DNA of 64,000 bases, from the IMG/VR virus record IMGVR_UViG_3300021400_001413, positions 1-64,000 of that record; one strand, given 5' to 3'. A model generated the notes under the pieces. That model searched no databases. It saw nothing but the letters and a program-made list of their open reading frames with translations, and had not been told where the DNA came from. How positions within the stretch are numbered: position 1 is the first letter of the stretch; the number at the start of each line of letters is the position of its first letter. A program made the position numbers and the translations under genes. This DNA comes from a virus. Taxonomy: Duplodnaviria > Caudoviricetes. Shown piece by piece: positions 25,596 through 42,583 of the stretch.

Positions 25596-25772
25596 AAGCT
25601 GAATTGTTTTGTTGTAAGATTAATAGTAGTCTCAATGAGAATCGAACTCATATCTAAGGTTTAGGAAACCTTTGTTCTATCCATTGAACTATAAGACCAA
25701 ATGCCTGCCACTGTAGGCTTAACATTTAAAGAAAAATTTGAAACGAATATGTCGCTCTCTCAGCGAGTAAAG

Positions 25773-31554: not shown

Positions 31555-32709
31555 TTATTCAAGATTTTGGGCTTTTTCTTTAATAGCATCCACCACAGTC
31601 TCATCAAGAAGCTTGGCATATATTTGCTCTGTTATCTTCAAAGATGAATGTCCACATATCTTAGTGACTATCTTCATATCTATTCCTTCGTTAAGGAGGA
31701 TAGTTGCTCCAGTATGTCTAGCCCAGTGTGTAGTTAATCCAACATCTAACCCTGCTGCTTGTGCTACATTCTTCAAGTAGAGATTATATTTCACATTACT
31801 TATTATAGGTAATACCCCTCTGTATTTAGCAAGAATATCAAGAGCAGGCTGGAGTAGGGGAATAGTAGTACTTTTCTTTGTCTTCTTCTGATTGAACTTA
31901 TAGACTTCTGTACCATTAATGATTACTATATTGTTAGGATTGAATCTTGCAAGATCTGAGTATCTCAGGCAAGTATAAGTCTGGAATACAAATAAATCTC
32001 TGACTCTTTTAAGACTATCTGTAGGCATCTTAGCAATTCTTAATTGATGGAATTCATTTAAAGTCAGACATTTATCCAAACTATTATTGTCCTTTCCTTT
32101 ATCTATATTTACCCACTTATATGGATTTCTTTGCAGTAGCCCGTCATCAATTGCATCTAAGATAAAACTATTAAGAAAGCGGTGGTAGTTCTGCCATTTG
32201 CTGTAGTTCTTCATACCTTGGTGTATAAGGTATTTGTCATAAGCTATGATATTACTGTCATTGATATCATTGAATGTCTTTATCTTTCCCCAGGAAGTGA
32301 ATTTCCTGAGAAACCTTTCATATCTCTGCTGGGTGTCTTTCTCTTTACCGTACTCTCTTACAGCAGCCCTCTGGTTACAAAAATCAATGAATCCGATTTT
32401 ATCAAGCTCTTTCCTGTTGAGTCTATCCTGAATAGTGAATATATCAATATTGTCTTCTTGGATCATATCTATTAGCACCTGTCTTACATTAGATACAAGC
32501 TTATCAAGAACCTGACTTATCTGAAGGATATTATCACAGTTGGTTATCTTGCCATCTTTCCATTGATTAGGATATAACCATATTCCAGTACTGAGGTATT
32601 TCTGTTTTCTGTTGTGAGTTACTCTGATTTCTACTACAGCTTTGGTCTTTGCATCTGCTTTCTTATACCTATTATATATAAGGTGTATTTGTGGAAATTT
32701 GTTATTCAT
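31555..32709 (-). CDS. int: tyrosine integrase, Bacteroidetes type with arm-binding N-terminal domain
   Basis: N-terminal VEIRVTHNRKQKYLSTGIWLYPNQW; catalytic set TCLRYSD (R), QKKTKK (K), HWARHT (H,R), GHSS (H), EQIYA (Y). Confidence 0.92.
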   Translation of the reverse strand: MNNKFPQIHLIYNRYKKADAKTKAVVEIRVTHNRKQKYLSTGIWLYPNQWKDGKITNCDNILQISQVLDKLVSNVRQVLIDMIQEDNIDIFTIQDRLNRKELDKIGFIDFCNQRAAVREYGKEKDTQQRYERFLRKFTSWGKIKTFNDINDSNIIAYDKYLIHQGMKNYSKWQNYHRFLNSFILDAIDDGLLQRNPYKWVNIDKGKDNNSLDKCLTLNEFHQLRIAKMPTDSLKRVRDLFVFQTYTCLRYSDLARFNPNNIVIINGTEVYKFNQKKTKKSTTIPLLQPALDILAKYRGVLPIISNVKYNLYLKNVAQAAGLDVGLTTHWARHTGATILLNEGIDMKIVTKICGHSSLKITEQIYAKLLDETVVDAIKEKAQNLE

Positions 32710-32810
32710 TGTTAAATTTTTAATTTGTACGTGAAATGGAGATAAAATGTATTATAGCAGGGGAGAGGAGTGTGAACTCTATAATACATTTATAATACAT
32801 TAATAGGAGA

Positions 32811-32842
32811 AAAATAAAAAGGGAGACCTGAGGACTCCCTTT
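32811..32842 (-). terminator. intrinsic terminator between att core and int
   Basis: AAAGGGAG...CTCCC hairpin followed by TTTTTATTTT on the minus strand. Confidence 0.7.
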
Positions 32843-32900
32843 ATTTACTTGAAAAGCAGAGGGTAAGGGGTTGGGACCCTATAGCCCTATTCTTTTTCCT

Positions 32901-32924
32901 TGCGGAAGGTGAGGGATTCAAACC
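32901..32924 (-). repeat. tRNA-Ser-like 3' fragment (T arm plus acceptor strand)
   Basis: GGTTTGAATCCC-TCACCTTCC-G-CA; no D or anticodon arm upstream. Confidence 0.7.
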
Positions 32925-33205
32925 TTGTAACCTATTTATACTATATATGTACCAGAGAATCACATATTTATCATTATAATACTATGGAGCATTAATCATA
33001 AGCTATAATACTTTTATAATACATTTGTTCATTTCGGGATTATTTCTGCCGCAAAATTAAGGTTTTAAATTTGAATTTTGAGTTAAACCTGTGAAAAAGA
33101 ATGTTAACGGATTCATTATAATGAGTAAATAATTGATTAGCAAACTAGTTAATAGTATATTTGCAAACAGTTACTCATAGTGTTATACTTAAAACCAAAA
33201 TTATA

Positions 33206-33442
33206 ATGGGCAGAGATTCTTATGACGATGAGCCAGTTTATTACTGCAAAAGATGTCTATCACTAAAGGTACGTCAAATGCCAATGGTTGAAGACCAATG
33301 TTACTGTGAAGATTGTGGCACAGTAGATATAGGAGTTGCAAGTTTTGAAGAATGGGATGATCTGTATGTAGAGAGGTATGGACATCATTTCTGTGAAAAA
33401 GAAGAGAAGAAAGAAGAAAGAAAGTGGCCTTACTGGTGCTGA
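33206..33442 (+). CDS. small zinc-finger protein
   Basis: YYCKRCLS...CYCEDCG; start moved to MGRDSY; promoter TATATTTG at 33156-33163. Confidence 0.7.
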   Translation: MGRDSYDDEPVYYCKRCLSLKVRQMPMVEDQCYCEDCGTVDIGVASFEEWDDLYVERYGHHFCEKEEKKEERKWPYWC

Positions 33443-36020: not shown

Positions 36021-36533
36021 ATGGAAAAATATTTTGAGTGGATGACATGTGTCATTGGAGGAATTATAGGATGGTTCATAGGTACATTCCAGCCAGCCTT
36101 TCCCCTTATTTATGTGGCAGTAGCCTTCATAGTATATGATTCTTGGACAGCTTATGAGCTGGACAAGAGAGTTAAAAGGCGGTATCCCGATAAAAAGAAG
36201 CTACCTGCTGCCTATGTTAGCTACAAAGCTTGGGGTATGGTTCCTACTATGATTGAAAGCTTCTCTATTATTCTTCTGATGTACTCTGCTCAGAAATGGA
36301 TATTTGTAGATGTCTATGTACCTTTGAGTTACATTGCTACAGGTGTTATCTGTGGTGTACAGTTACTGAGTATTGCTGAGAATAAATCTTCTTGTAGGAC
36401 TCCTCAGGATAAAGGATGGAACTACTGGAAGATCATGGCTAAGGTTCTTATTGATAAGACGGAAAGACATTTTGATGTCAATCTATCTGATTTGAAGGAG
36501 GATTTTGATAAGGAGACTAATACAGAAGATTAA
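36021..36533 (+). CDS. putative holin
   Basis: 3-4 hydrophobic helices; first gene of the lysis cassette; promoter TATTTTTG at 35985-35992. Confidence 0.6.
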   Translation: MEKYFEWMTCVIGGIIGWFIGTFQPAFPLIYVAVAFIVYDSWTAYELDKRVKRRYPDKKKLPAAYVSYKAWGMVPTMIESFSIILLMYSAQKWIFVDVYVPLSYIATGVICGVQLLSIAENKSSCRTPQDKGWNYWKIMAKVLIDKTERHFDVNLSDLKEDFDKETNTED

Positions 36534-37171
36534 TGGAGTTATATAAAAGAGGATCTAGAGGAGAAATAGTTAAGCAGATACAGATAGCACTACATCTGTA
36601 TCCTGATGGTATATTTGGCATCTTAACAGAAGAAGCTGTTAAGGAATTCCAAAAAACTAATGGCTTAATAGTAGATGGCATTGTTGGGCCTGCTACTATA
36701 GCTTATCTTATACCTCTGAGGCTGAAGAAAAGCAAAAGAACTATTGATGAGATAATCATTCATTGCTCTGCAACTCCAGAAGGCAAGGATTATACAGTAG
36801 AGGATATCAGAAGAGACCATAAAAAACAAGGTTGGAGTGATATTGGCTACCATTATGTTATCTATAGAGATGGTTCTATTCATGAAGGAAGAGATGTAGA
36901 TTTAGTAGGTGCTCATTGTTCTAAGAATGGGCATAATCAACACTCTATAGGAATATGTTATATTGGAGGAGTTGAGAACAAGCCAAATACGCCTTATGCT
37001 TTACTGAAAGCTAAGGATACTAGAACAGATGCTCAGAAAGGAGCCTTAATATGCTTATTGTACGATTTAAAGAAGCTCTATCCAAAAGCTCAGATATGGG
37101 GACATAGAGATTTTGATTCTGGTAAGGAATGCCCATCATTTGATGCAAGAAATGAATATAGGAGATTTTAA
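36533..37171 (+). CDS. endolysin: peptidoglycan-binding domain plus T7 lysozyme-like N-acetylmuramoyl-L-alanine amidase
   Basis: PDGIFG...GLIVDGIVG (PG-binding); IIIHCSAT, DIGYHYVI, SIGICYIGG, WGHRDF, KECPSF. Confidence 0.92.
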   Translation: MELYKRGSRGEIVKQIQIALHLYPDGIFGILTEEAVKEFQKTNGLIVDGIVGPATIAYLIPLRLKKSKRTIDEIIIHCSATPEGKDYTVEDIRRDHKKQGWSDIGYHYVIYRDGSIHEGRDVDLVGAHCSKNGHNQHSIGICYIGGVENKPNTPYALLKAKDTRTDAQKGALICLLYDLKKLYPKAQIWGHRDFDSGKECPSFDARNEYRRF

Positions 37172-37756: not shown

Positions 37757-40081
37757 ATGGAAGAGGAGAGTAAAATATTATTTGATAACAGTCAGTTAAA
37801 TGAATTTCAGACCCCAATAACTAAGGAGTTATTGGAACAATACCCCCAAGAAGTGCAAGAACAATTTTGGGAGTTTATTCTTTCTGTACCTTTTATTAAG
37901 AATTTGATTTCAGTTAACAGGCAGAGAGCAAAAGACAGACCTAGGGATGAAAAAGGTAGGATTATAGTAGATCTTGCCAATCCGCATATCTTAGAAGATA
38001 TGGATTACTTTAGGCAGGCAGCTATTAAGTTTGAGAGAGACGGCAGATACACTGATTTGAAACCCAACAGCAATCCTAATTCTCCTTATGGTAAATGGAT
38101 AAGGAGAGAGATAAAAAGATGTTGGGAAGGAATGGTAAGACCCTCTGACGGGGAATGGGTAACAGGATATATGTATTTTTATCTGAATTATGTACCAATG
38201 ATGGTAACTAAGGCAGATAAAGATACCAAAAAGAAAAGAGCTTCAAGAACAGAAGGATTTCCTGAAATGTGGGAAGCAACTTATTGGAGATTCCACTATA
38301 TTGACCAAGCAAGAAATGGAGGAATGTATAATGATTTTGCTGGTGGTAATCATGCAGTAGAATTAAGTAAGCGTGGCTCTGGTAAGTCATTTTGTCTTGC
38401 AGCAATCATGGCTCATAACCTGATTCTTGGAGAAAATGCAGAAGCACATAAAAGAACAACCACTATCCTGACTGCATACTTAAGAGAATACCTTGCTGAG
38501 AAAGATGGTACTTTTTCTAAATTTGTTCCTATTAAATCTTTCTTGGCTGAACATACTCAATTTCCAAGAAGAATGCTGACTGACTCTCCAAACAAGATGT
38601 CTTGGAGGTCAGGTTATAAAGATAGGCTTACTGGTGCAGAAACAGGAGACCAGAATATTCTACTTGGTCTTTCATCAAAGGATGACGTAGCAAAGATTCG
38701 AGGTAAGCGTGGTTATATATTATTTGAGGAGTTTGGTTCATTCCCTAACCTTATTGAGATATATAATAATGTAAAGGATGGTATGCGTGAGGGTAAATAT
38801 GTCTATGGACTTGCTTATCTGTTAGGTACAGCTGGTGATAAAGACTCAGACTTTCACGGTGCTCAGGAGTTGATATATAATCCTAAAGGATATGATGTAT
38901 ATGCTATTCCAAACGTATGGGATAAACCCAATCAGGGAAGACCTTGGTTTGCCTTCTTCACTCCAGCATTTGTAAACCTGAAAGGGTACTTCAACAAGGA
39001 TGGTGTAAGTGATATAGTAGGGGCAATGCTCTATAAACTGATGGATAGATATAAGGCTAAATATGAGACTGGAGATCCAAGAACCATCATTAAAGAAGTC
39101 AGCAATATGCCTTTTACTCCCTCGGAAGCTATCATTCAGGGAGGAATCAGCCAATTCCCAGTAGTAGACCTTGAGAACAGGATACTTGAAATAAATTCTA
39201 ATCCTAATTTCTATGATGATACTTTAGTAGGCCAGTTGGTTATTACAGATAATAAAGTAGAATTTGTACCTACTTCAGATACTCCTATCAGATTCTATCA
39301 ACAGAAGGATAACAAGAATATGCCAGGAGCCATAGAAATATTTGAGAAACCTCAGGTAGATTCTAATGGTGAAGTATATGCTAATAGATATATTGCAGGT
39401 GCAGACCCCTATGATAACGATGAGTCAACTACGACTTCTTTAGGCTCAATTCTTATTCTTGATTTGATGACTGATAGGATTGTAGCAGAGTACACTGGAA
39501 GACCTCCTATGGCAGATGATTATTTTGAGATATGTAGAAGACTTTGTCTTTATTATAATGCAAGGTTAAATTATGAGAACAATAAAAAAGGACTCTTTGG
39601 TCATTTCTCTAAAATGAATTCTACATATCTGTTAACAGATGTTCTTGAGATTCTTGTAGATAAACAAATGATGAAACCTGGGGGTGTAGGTAATACCGCT
39701 AAAGGAACCAATGCCTCTAATTCTATAAATGGTTGGGGAAGACAACTTATTGCAAAATATCTTCTTACCCCACAGACAATAATTGTAGCTCCGGAGGGAG
39801 AAGAAAAGGAAATAAAGAAACGTAATCTTGATTTTATCAAAAATAAGGCTCTTCTAATAGAATTGTCACAGTGGAATCCATTTGGTAACTTTGACCGAGT
39901 ATCTGCTATGGGTATGTTGATGCTTCTTAGAGAGGATAAGCTCAGGTTAATGGGAGGAAGTTATAATGGTAGAGAAGATGATATATCAGATCCAGATGAC
40001 ATCGCAAATGATAGTTATTGGGAGGATAATTTTCATGATACAGACAAGGATTCTTGGGAAGAGTTAATGTATAAGGAATAA
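37757..40081 (+). CDS. terL: terminase large subunit
   Basis: Walker A SKRGSGKSF, Walker B ILFEEFG, coupling motif LLGTAG, nuclease YIAGADPYD and FDRVSA; crAss-like size. Confidence 0.93.
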   Translation: MEEESKILFDNSQLNEFQTPITKELLEQYPQEVQEQFWEFILSVPFIKNLISVNRQRAKDRPRDEKGRIIVDLANPHILEDMDYFRQAAIKFERDGRYTDLKPNSNPNSPYGKWIRREIKRCWEGMVRPSDGEWVTGYMYFYLNYVPMMVTKADKDTKKKRASRTEGFPEMWEATYWRFHYIDQARNGGMYNDFAGGNHAVELSKRGSGKSFCLAAIMAHNLILGENAEAHKRTTTILTAYLREYLAEKDGTFSKFVPIKSFLAEHTQFPRRMLTDSPNKMSWRSGYKDRLTGAETGDQNILLGLSSKDDVAKIRGKRGYILFEEFGSFPNLIEIYNNVKDGMREGKYVYGLAYLLGTAGDKDSDFHGAQELIYNPKGYDVYAIPNVWDKPNQGRPWFAFFTPAFVNLKGYFNKDGVSDIVGAMLYKLMDRYKAKYETGDPRTIIKEVSNMPFTPSEAIIQGGISQFPVVDLENRILEINSNPNFYDDTLVGQLVITDNKVEFVPTSDTPIRFYQQKDNKNMPGAIEIFEKPQVDSNGEVYANRYIAGADPYDNDESTTTSLGSILILDLMTDRIVAEYTGRPPMADDYFEICRRLCLYYNARLNYENNKKGLFGHFSKMNSTYLLTDVLEILVDKQMMKPGGVGNTAKGTNASNSINGWGRQLIAKYLLTPQTIIVAPEGEEKEIKKRNLDFIKNKALLIELSQWNPFGNFDRVSAMGMLMLLREDKLRLMGGSYNGREDDISDPDDIANDSYWEDNFHDTDKDSWEELMYKE

Positions 40082-40162
40082 ATAGGATGATGGTATAATA
40101 AAAAAGTAACTAGTTTGTAAACGTAGGTTTATCTACTTACTTTTGCAGAAAATATATTGAAT

Positions 40163-42583
40163 ATGAGTGTAGCATTATTTACTGGATTTCCAAGACAGAT
40201 GCTTTCTTACAAGCAGAAAGGTTCCAAGTGGGGCAAGCAATGTGTTGACTTTGCTGACAACAAGGGAACTTTTATGCATGTGTCTGCTGTGCAGAAATCA
40301 GTACTTCACAAGAAAATCAACTATGATCTTGTGAATATGAAAATCCATAAGGATGATATTGCTTATGTCCTCAATCCAAATAATCTGAAGGCAAGCTTTA
40401 TCCCTGATTCTATTCAGCACTATCCAACTCTTAATGCCTATATGGAACTGTTAAGAGGAGAAGCTCTTGACAGACCTTTTGAATGGACAGCAGTAGTAAC
40501 AAACCCAAATGCTATCAGTGATATTGAGAATCAGAAAAGGAATGCTGTTTTTCAGAGTCTGCAAAGTTTGATTCAAAGTCAGTCTGTTTCTGAGGAAGAT
40601 TTTCAAAAGAGACTCCAGGAACAGAGTGATTACTTTACTTATCAGTATCAGGATATGCGTGAAGTAAGGGCCAACAGACTGATGAATCACTATAATATGC
40701 AGTATGATTTCCGTAATATCTTTGATAGTGAAGGAATCATGGATGCTTTAACTTCTAATGAGGAATACTATGCTGTGGACATTCTTGGAGGAGAACCTTT
40801 CATTGAAAGAATAGACCCTCTGGAGCTGCGTATTTATAGGTCTGGTAATTCAAATAGAGCAGAAGATGCTGATATGATTATATGGGAAACATATAGAAAT
40901 ATTGGCTGGGTTAAGGATAATTACCACGATGTTCTAACTAAGAAGGATTGGGAATATCTTAACAAACTGGAATCAGGAAGCATTGAGGACACAAATGAAG
41001 ATCCTCTGTGGGATGATAAAAATGCCTGGATGGATCCTGAATTTGGAAATGAAATGGTCAATAATCCACATTTCTTCTCAGCAATGTTGGGAGAATATGG
41101 ATATGTCTCAGGAGCACTGCCTTTTGATGGAGAAGGTAATGTAAGAGTCCTTCGTGTATACTGGAAATCAAGCAGGAAAATTAAGAAAGTCAAAAGTTAT
41201 AATCCTACAACAGGAGAAGAGGAATTCCATTTCTATACAGAAGATTATGTTCCTAATAAAGTATTGGGAGAAGAAGAAGAAATATTCTGGGTAAATGAAG
41301 CTTGGGAAGGAACAAAGATCGGTACTGATATTTATGTAAACATCAGACCAAGACCTATTCAATACAACTCTATGAGTAATCCATCAAGGTGCCATTTTGG
41401 TATTATTGGACAGATATATAATATAGGTAAGCATTCTAGCCCATCTATGGTAGATATTCTGAAGCCTTATGTTTATCTGTTTGATGCTACAATGGACAAA
41501 CTTTACAAGCTACTTGAGTCAAATCTTGGCAAGCTTGTAGAGATGGATTTTGCTTTTAGTCCTGATTCCTGGAAAATGGAAAAGGTTCTTCACTTTGCCA
41601 AGGTTAATCACCTGTGGGTAAAGAACTCTTTTAACGAAGGTAAAAAAGGAGCTGCAACAGGAAAGATTGCAGGAGCTATGAATGCCAATACTACTGGTGT
41701 TATTGATGCCTCAGTAAATACTGAGATTCAATTCAATATTCAGTTATTGGATTGGCTTGATACTCAGATGGGCAAAGCTTGTGGTATTACTCCTCAGAGA
41801 CTTGGTCAGGTATCTAATAGAGAAACAGTTGGTGGTGTGGAAAGAGCTACACTACAAAGTTCTCATATTACAGAGTCTATCTTTGCAAGACATGATAACC
41901 TGAAGAAGAGAGTATTGGAAGCATTTATTGAAACAGCCAAGATTGCTATTAAAGGAAGAAAGAAGAAGTTTGAGTATATTCTTTCTGATGGAGCAAGGGC
42001 TTTAGAGACAATTGATGGTGATGAGTTTGCAGAGTGTGACTATGGAATTGTAGTTGATAGCTCTCAAGGTACTCGTCTTCTTATGCAGAAGCTTGACACT
42101 TTAGCTCAGGCAGGTATTCAGAATCAGATGTTCAATTTCTCTACACTGATGAAACTGTATTCTACAGACTCTATCTCTGAGAAGGTGAGAATGATGGAAG
42201 CAGCAGAAAGACGTGCTGAGGAATTGCAACAGCAACAACAACAGATTCAGCAGCAAATGCAGCAAGAGCAACTGGAGGCTGAAGCACAACAGAAGCAGCT
42301 TGAGATGGAGCAGAAGGAAATCCAGAATCAGCGTGATAATGAAACCAAGATTCTTGTTGCTCAGATTCAAGCACAAGCTAATATTGATTCTTCTGTTGCA
42401 AGAGCATCCGGATTTACAGAAAACCCGCAAACTCCTATTTCAGAGAAAGATCGCTTACAGCTTCAGCAACAGATTCAAGAAAGCAAGGAGAAGAATCAGC
42501 TGGAAAGAGAAAAGTTGCAGCTTGAGAGGGAGAAGATAAAAAGCCAGGAAAGAATAGCAAAGAGTAATAATGGTGGAAACTAA
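40163..42583 (+). CDS. portal protein
   Basis: ~807 aa directly after terL; FPRQMLS...W...C.D N-terminus, QRLGQVSNRETVGGVERA, Q-rich coiled-coil C-terminus; promoter TACTTTTG at 40138-40145. Confidence 0.9.
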   Translation: MSVALFTGFPRQMLSYKQKGSKWGKQCVDFADNKGTFMHVSAVQKSVLHKKINYDLVNMKIHKDDIAYVLNPNNLKASFIPDSIQHYPTLNAYMELLRGEALDRPFEWTAVVTNPNAISDIENQKRNAVFQSLQSLIQSQSVSEEDFQKRLQEQSDYFTYQYQDMREVRANRLMNHYNMQYDFRNIFDSEGIMDALTSNEEYYAVDILGGEPFIERIDPLELRIYRSGNSNRAEDADMIIWETYRNIGWVKDNYHDVLTKKDWEYLNKLESGSIEDTNEDPLWDDKNAWMDPEFGNEMVNNPHFFSAMLGEYGYVSGALPFDGEGNVRVLRVYWKSSRKIKKVKSYNPTTGEEEFHFYTEDYVPNKVLGEEEEIFWVNEAWEGTKIGTDIYVNIRPRPIQYNSMSNPSRCHFGIIGQIYNIGKHSSPSMVDILKPYVYLFDATMDKLYKLLESNLGKLVEMDFAFSPDSWKMEKVLHFAKVNHLWVKNSFNEGKKGAATGKIAGAMNANTTGVIDASVNTEIQFNIQLLDWLDTQMGKACGITPQRLGQVSNRETVGGVERATLQSSHITESIFARHDNLKKRVLEAFIETAKIAIKGRKKKFEYILSDGARALETIDGDEFAECDYGIVVDSSQGTRLLMQKLDTLAQAGIQNQMFNFSTLMKLYSTDSISEKVRMMEAAERRAEELQQQQQQIQQQMQQEQLEAEAQQKQLEMEQKEIQNQRDNETKILVAQIQAQANIDSSVARASGFTENPQTPISEKDRLQLQQQIQESKEKNQLEREKLQLEREKIKSQERIAKSNNGGN

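Follow-up and report, generated by a model that had tools for sequence, protein, structure and literature searches.

The window analysed here is a 64,000-nucleotide stretch, bases 1-64000 of a 79,326-base IMG/VR record with 78% completeness, and it carries, on the minus strand, a gene for a tyrosine integrase (int) with a terminator hairpin and a 22-25 nt core about 190 nt upstream of it. Around the core the layout is of lambda type (POP'), with three copies of a repeat on the int-proximal side and two or three on the distal side, the repeated word being distinct from the core. The features to which we refer below are these:

25626-25698, minus strand: tRNA-Arg(CCT), found at the same distance from int in the apparently integrated relative L134
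31555-32709, minus strand: int, encoding a 384-aa tyrosine integrase (open reading frame; Pfam; PHROG 1, integrase)
32746-32756, minus strand: P' arm-type repeat, TATAATACATT exact and inverted, at -47 from the int ATG
32780-32801, plus strand: P' arm, an exact 11-bp tandem of two TATAATACATT copies, 90 and 79 nt upstream of the int ATG
32818-32842, minus strand: intrinsic terminator hairpin with U-run, just downstream of the tRNA 3'-end copy (inverted repeat; fold)
32900-32924, minus strand: attP core, matching the 3' end of tRNA-Ser(CGA)
33004-33025, plus strand: P arm, an 11-bp tandem of TATAATACTTT followed by an exact TATAATACATT
33206-33442, plus strand: first phage gene past the P arm, a called gene for a 78-aa Cys-rich protein of unknown function

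Read along the minus strand, the order is far arm, core, terminator, near-arm tandem, inverted near-arm copy and int start codon. The core itself, from 32924 to 32900, reads GGTTTGAATCCCTCACCTTCCG followed by CAA, and positions 32903-32924 reproduce the final 22 nt of tRNA-Ser(CGA), from two nucleotides of T-stem through the T-loop, T-stem and acceptor strand to G73. Neither the window nor the 79-kb record contains a second copy, the chance expectation being 0.06 even with three mismatches. The hairpin at 32818-32842 was missed by a simple terminator scan and was settled by folding (-14.4 kcal/mol, z = -4.2); together with its U-run it bears out the terminator that a first-pass annotation of this DNA had placed upstream of int. 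That annotation had also described five repeats flanking the core, two pairs of them in exact 11-bp tandem. The repeats on both sides and the 11-bp tandem spacing stand, but the second pair (33004/33015) is not exact, because the copy at 33004 differs from TATAATACATT by one mismatch. All four exact copies in the 64-kb window (32746 on the minus strand; 32780, 32791 and 33015 on the plus strand) fall within one 280-bp stretch; some 3.9 one-mismatch matches to the word are expected by chance in the whole window. A third, weaker P-arm copy with two mismatches may lie at 32975-32985.

The core, which has no second copy in the record, is flanked on both sides by phage genes; the site is therefore in the free attP form, as had been proposed from the sequence. 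The same single copy, and the lack of a full tRNA-Ser in the window, exclude a mobile element inserted into a phage tRNA gene. Two Logan contigs (L157 and L162, SRR873599) are broken at the core, where they share 30 identical nt (k-1, k = 31) corresponding to window positions 32892-32921. This break was considered as a graph branch arising from junction forms and was discounted, the break point fitting neither attL nor attR.

Integrase and phage backbone

Three Pfam domains score above their cut-offs in Int: the arm-binding Arm-DNA-bind_5 (PF17293, residues 11-87), the SAM-like core-binding Phage_int_SAM_5 (PF13102, residues 107-198) and the catalytic Phage_integrase (PF00589, residues 233-369; 62.5 bits against a cut-off of 27.1). 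With this combination Int meets the criteria for the IntCTnDOT subgroup, and the scores of NCBIfam Xer models on the same protein are far below their cut-offs. Motifs and alignment to XerC-like 4a8e and HP1 Int 1aih place the catalytic set at R249, K276, H328, R331, H354 and Y364, the last of these being the tyrosine nucleophile, in agreement with the earlier claim of a tyrosine integrase with an arm-binding domain and a full R-K-H-R-H-Y set. Full-length orthologues are found in 18 related loci, and K276, H328, R331 and Y364 are invariant across them. In an alignment of 19 sequences the first catalytic arginine co-varies perfectly, R249 being paired with Q274 in 4 of the 19 and S or A249 with R274 in the other 15; the window Int, with R249 and Q274, has the canonical arrangement. 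Two alternative locations of this arginine are described for the IntCTnDOT subgroup, the integrases of NBU1, NBU2 and Tn4555 having the canonical residue (PMC8138268) and that of CTnDOT the alternative one (PMC8138268, citing Kim et al. 2010), to be compared with the R274 of those 15 sequences, two residues before the catalytic lysine. As judged by its domains and residues, the window integrase belongs to the Bacteroidota IntCTnDOT/NBU-type subgroup.

The genome that surrounds it is crAss-like. TerL (37757-40081, PHROG 6681) and portal (40157-42583, PHROG 6547) are both crAss-type in a PHROG search and satisfy the criteria for Crassvirales/Steigviridae, MCP and virion RNAP being outside the comparison. 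TerL is 57% identical to that of cr85_1, 56% to that of IAS virus and 52% to that of crAss001, all Steigviridae/Asinivirinae, and in the TerL tree the window is nested among the Steigviridae/Asinivirinae references. An identical integrase is encoded on a Logan contig of SRR873599 and on a sheep-rumen scaffold that matches the window at 99.9% identity along 21 kb. These comparisons assign the window to a sheep-rumen crAss phage that is Steigviridae-like. Its replication module lies to the left of int/attP, and TerL and portal lie to the right. The protein encoded at 33206-33442, which marks the border of the int/arm/core cassette, has no Pfam or PHROG match, and megablast of the int region against 50,697 phage records returned no match. 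An endolysin with PG_binding_1 and Amidase_2 domains is encoded at 36533-37171, just upstream of TerL. In the closest relative, L185 (G001:C1:10800-14600), about 1.1 kb interrupts TerL between residues 358 and 359 of the window TerL; the gene is one stop-free open frame of 1166 aa, the interruption is intein-like in look, and TerL is split in L179 and L183 as well.

The host tRNA gene and the attL junction of a relative

When each prokaryotic species, represented by a single genome, was scanned for the core with a variable T-loop, at least 120 loci were obtained, and all 120 matches listed are tRNA genes. The exact and unusual T-loop of the core, GGTTTGAATCC, is present in 59 of these 120, every one of which is labelled Prevotella, Prevotellaceae, Bacteroidaceae or Bacteroidales (or Candidatus Equimonas) or has no taxon label; among the matches listed, the Bacteroidales-labelled loci with this T-loop are mostly Prevotella/Prevotellaceae. 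A tRNA-Ser with anticodon CGA is readable in 58 of the 59 listed, and the CAA of the core (32900-32902) also stands directly after the gene in 21 of them. Those matches listed that come from other phyla carry the T-loop GGTTCGAATCC. The tRNA 3'-end copy with G73 that had been called Ser-like from the sequence alone agrees at every position with the 3' end of Prevotella/Prevotellaceae tRNA-Ser(CGA), and the suggested Bacteroidales tRNA-Ser target is borne out and narrowed to rumen Prevotella rather than Bacteroidales in general. Together with the attL junction described below, this match between core and tRNA provides a firm assignment of the host to Prevotella. The core is on the same strand as int, an orientation fit for restoring the host tRNA-Ser gene.

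An integrase scan of metagenome contigs yielded 24 loci. The relative L134, 12.2 kb from the start of contig JAEEGL016827000.1, whose full length is 53.6 kb (a metagenome assembly, without reads), begins with host-like DNA: positions 1-837 have 53.6% GC, hold the end of carB and a yigZ/Impact_N gene, and are 70-84% identical in nucleotide sequence to DNA upstream of tRNA-Ser(CGA) in Prevotella MAGs. A complete tRNA-Ser(CGA) follows at 838-926, and after it come a terminator hairpin, three TGTATTATA repeats and int. The arm word TGTATTATA is common to the window and L134; the terminator is a different hairpin with a T-run in the same relative position as that of the window. The L134 Int is 88% identical in amino acids to the window Int, and the 10 kb beyond int (37.7% GC) are collinear with window 31579->21698, including tRNA-Arg(CCT) and a helicase. 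Taken as assembled, this order of host DNA, full tRNA-Ser, int and phage genes is the predicted attL junction, and the layout that the first-pass annotation had foreseen after integration, with the tRNA restored, a terminator added and int adjacent, is seen in this relative.

Two short contigs, L158 and L159 (JGI 3300041004 and 3300041006), carry an Int identical to that of L134 behind a near-full tRNA-Ser, and there are two junction variants with this same Int, one in L134 and L159 and the other, with a different spacer, in L158. A host with an identical YigZ is represented on more than 20 contigs, including some from JGI 3300041004 and 3300041006, in which non-phage DNA follows the tRNA. Because the same-YigZ host also has this non-phage DNA after its tRNA, occupied and unoccupied tRNA sites coexist. 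In the same host strain (L166, L168 and L170-L172) genes for Peptidase_M15_3, an HTH_3/Gp49 pair, HIRAN, DnaJ-like and SMC/AAA proteins come after the tRNA-Ser and look like another island or prophage end, and in L169 the host tRNA-Ser is accompanied by an inverted tRNA-like fragment and by an arm-binding integrase that is truncated.

Of the attL and attR junctions and prophage copies whose search had been proposed at the outset, we detected attL, in the relatives L134, L158 and L159, but no attR and no related prophage. When the product of the gene neighbouring the P arm was looked up as an exact protein, every contig recovered was either attP-type or very short, a P-arm-plus-core pattern had no match in viral_contigs, and the relatives of the 143-aa neighbour gene in viral_contigs are Int-less phages. 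By TerL, no related prophage was found in 802 sampled Bacteroidaceae/Prevotella species genomes (401 at the family level and 401 at the genus level). The sole TerL match in those 802, L165 (G644:C203:13065-17975), comes from a Prevotella-genus genome and is crAss-type, with 36% identity, and unrelated; its TerL has six in-frame TAG codons, as in a TAG-recoded crAss-like phage, which was either binned with the genome or is integrated in it. Among 57 small ORFs, Pfam and PHROGs revealed no HTH/CI repressor, excisionase (Xis) or antirepressor, a result that does not exclude divergent proteins. The classical criterion for a temperate phage, repressor/immunity and excision genes beside int, is not satisfied.

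Cassette exchange and the reading of the locus

Seven further crAss-like contigs (L122, L123, L127, L132, L135, L137 and L138) carry int in the attP state at the corresponding site, with the replication block on one side and the genes that lead to TerL on the other, and the position of the cassette remains syntenic across a TerL divergence of 38-88%. Every lineage has an 11-bp tandem about 90/79 nt upstream of int, a third proximal copy (at -57 or -47 in the relatives) and copies past the core. The -90/-79 tandem geometry is realised with lineage-specific words in L134, L158, L122, L161 and L132, and far-arm tandem copies are located in L122/L161 (-253), L123 (-270/-259) and L124 (-329/-318). 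The arm word is TTCTTTATA in L122, L132 and L161, TTATGTACA in L123 and TGTTTTACC in non-crAss phages; as far as can be judged from these repeats, the word varies with the integrase lineage and the spacing is kept. Core length among relatives ranges from 22 to 45 nt of the same tRNA. The cores of L122/L161 and L132 are other tRNA-Ser-like acceptor sequences, and the alternative core of L122/L161 (acceptor ACTCTCC) is absent from five Prevotella genomes. L161 encodes a protein identical to that of window positions 33206-33442 beside a different Int, a different arm word and a different tRNA-Ser-type core; since the same backbone thus occurs with another int/arm/core set, the cassette has been exchanged as a unit. 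At L136:114-186 a clade-2 crAss-type integrase (63% identity) is situated directly behind a complete tRNA-Glu(CTC) on a contig of only 2.3 kb; this tRNA may be a further target or belong to the phage.

In the TerL tree the Int-positive phages form two separate, well-supported clades that are interleaved with Int-less phages (crAss001, IAS virus, cr85_1 and several rumen contigs), and PF00589 is absent from three complete sister genomes. Integrases that are 48-52% identical and have the same tRNA-Ser core occur in complete 51-63 kb non-crAss phages. This distribution of Int fits cassette exchange among Prevotella phages, or repeated loss. At the site syntenic to int-attP, the three complete sister genomes have tRNA arrays instead; in the Int-less sisters L177-L182 (viral_contigs) such arrays comprise one to four genes (Gln, Thr, Pro, Arg, Leu).

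We interpret the locus, with a probability of about 0.82, as an integration module made up of int and attP, in its free state, that belongs to a Steigviridae-like crAss phage infecting rumen Prevotella. Int would act as a heterobivalent tyrosine integrase of the Bacteroidota IntCTnDOT/NBU type in a lambda-like reaction. Its N-terminal domain is inferred, in the absence of binding data, to bind the TATAATACATT arm sites that flank the core, and its catalytic domain would exchange strands within the 22-25 nt core, the crossover probably falling, by inference, in or just 3' of the T-loop. The attL formed by integration would be composed of the host 5' part of the tRNA, the phage-supplied 3' end, the phage terminator, the arm sites and int; the tRNA would stay intact and its transcription would be insulated from int, a product layout that is seen only in the relative L134. 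Because the integrase is intact, the att site is complete and matches tRNA-Ser, and a relative is assembled as inserted at that very gene, we conclude from sequence evidence alone that this branch of supposedly non-integrating phages very probably forms prophages. The activity of this particular phage is inferred. The first-pass reading of an integrating lineage is supported, those of its proposed checks that were run having come out in its favor. Against integration it can be held that no attR, no related prophage in the sampled genomes and no recognisable repressor or excisionase was found, that the attL evidence consists of metagenome assemblies of a relative, not of this phage, and that the core is short, keeping 2 nt of the 5' T-stem.

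It is possible to suppose that int-attP is a captured passenger, derived from temperate Prevotella phages or an NBU-like element and left unused by a phage that is effectively virulent. The occurrence of related integrases with the same tRNA-Ser core in complete non-crAss phages, the interleaving of Int-positive and Int-less phages in two TerL clades, the lack of a recognised repressor or excisionase and the absence of prophages from the sampled genomes can all be cited in its favor. However, all 19 integrases are full length with conserved catalytic residues, the arm words co-vary with Int at fixed geometry, the cassette keeps a single syntenic position across the full range of TerL divergence, and L134 joins phage genes, beyond the cassette alone, to the host tRNA; we regard an unused passenger as unlikely.

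L134, L158 and L159 could also be assembly chimeras formed by way of the shared tRNA segment, in which case the core would be a relic and there would be no evidence of integration. All three were assembled from short metagenomic reads, in some lineages the segment in common could be as long as ~45-56 nt, L158 and L159 start at the tRNA, and the samples may share one project. Such an artefact is nonetheless very improbable in our estimation: the join coincides exactly with the crossover point that was predicted, orientation and gene order are likewise as expected, the junction exists in two variants (L134/L159 and L158) with the same Int, and other phages of the same Int family have the same attL layout in long bacterial contigs, e.g. 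L144 (179 kb). A role for Int other than chromosomal integration, such as multimer resolution of a circular or plasmid-like phage genome, would accord with the report of the prototypic crAssphage as a non-integrating phage-plasmid (PMC10983915) and with the fact that tyrosine recombinases act also as resolvases. Yet an arm-binding domain with arm repeats is a hallmark of integrases and not of Xer-type proteins, whose models score so far below cut-off here, the site copies the 3' end of the host tRNA gene letter for letter, and an attL junction is observed in L134, leaving this role scarcely credible.

Beyond the integration module itself, we give slightly better than even odds to a wider proposal, the parts of which are judged jointly. 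Rumen Crassvirales would include truly lysogenic lineages, in at least two Steigviridae-like TerL clades, with exchangeable int-arm-core cassettes at one hotspot; the cassettes would retarget phages among Prevotella tRNAs (two or three tRNA-Ser types, perhaps tRNA-Glu or tRNA-Lys); and lysogeny would be controlled by proteins unlike known repressors and excisionases, the Int-less sisters holding tRNA arrays at the hotspot.

Relation to known systems

Whether crAss-like phages can be lysogenic has been an open question since their discovery. For crAss001, no integrase was reported and no evidence of any crAss-like phage as a prophage (PMC6235969), Carjivirus communis is described as non-integrating (PMC10983915), and no integrase was found in Epsilon crAss phages (PMC11054128). 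Integrase annotations do exist in some Crassvirales, rarely in Steigviridae (PMC13503771), and recent surveys predict crAss-like prophages (PMC12454387, PMC11923282), without mapped att sites in any of the three (PMC13503771, PMC12454387, PMC11923282); our literature search found no published att-site mapping for a crAss-like phage. For a Steigviridae-like lineage attP, attB and attL can now be written down, with a named host genus and target gene, and with these three sites known, lysogeny is directly testable. The module might also serve as an integration tool for Prevotella, in which genetic manipulation is difficult.

crAss001 and Carjivirus communis share the order Crassvirales with the window phage but differ from it in that they are reported to lack an integrase and a prophage form. 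In the phage record collection the nearest integrase is that of LoVEphage/Bacteroides phage BI-TP1 (36% identity over 97% of the length), a low similarity to temperate, non-crAss Bacteroides/Phocaeicola phages of ~71 kb. The likeness to lambda Int and its POP' site lies in a core between arm-type repeats, an int beside attP and the placement of int at one prophage end; the differences are an integrase of an unrelated subgroup, a core that is a tRNA 3' end, and the fact that neither Xis nor IHF sites were identified. IntDOT of CTnDOT resembles the window Int in being heterobivalent with arm-type sites, and the alternative location of its arginine is shared by 15 of the 19 aligned relatives (S/A249, R274, without the box-I arginine), whereas the window Int has R249/Q274. 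CTnDOT is not known to target a tRNA, and it tolerates heterology in the overlap. Closest in design are IntN2 of NBU2 and IntN1 of NBU1, which have the same Arm-DNA-bind_5, SAM_5 and catalytic architecture, the canonical first arginine and, as target, the 3' end of a tRNA gene; NBU2 integrates at tRNA-Ser. NBU1 and NBU2, however, are small mobilizable elements of Bacteroides, and the window module is carried by a ~100-kb crAss-like phage of Prevotella. The type of system, an IntCTnDOT/NBU-type integrase at a tRNA gene, is known; its mapped presence in Crassvirales is new.
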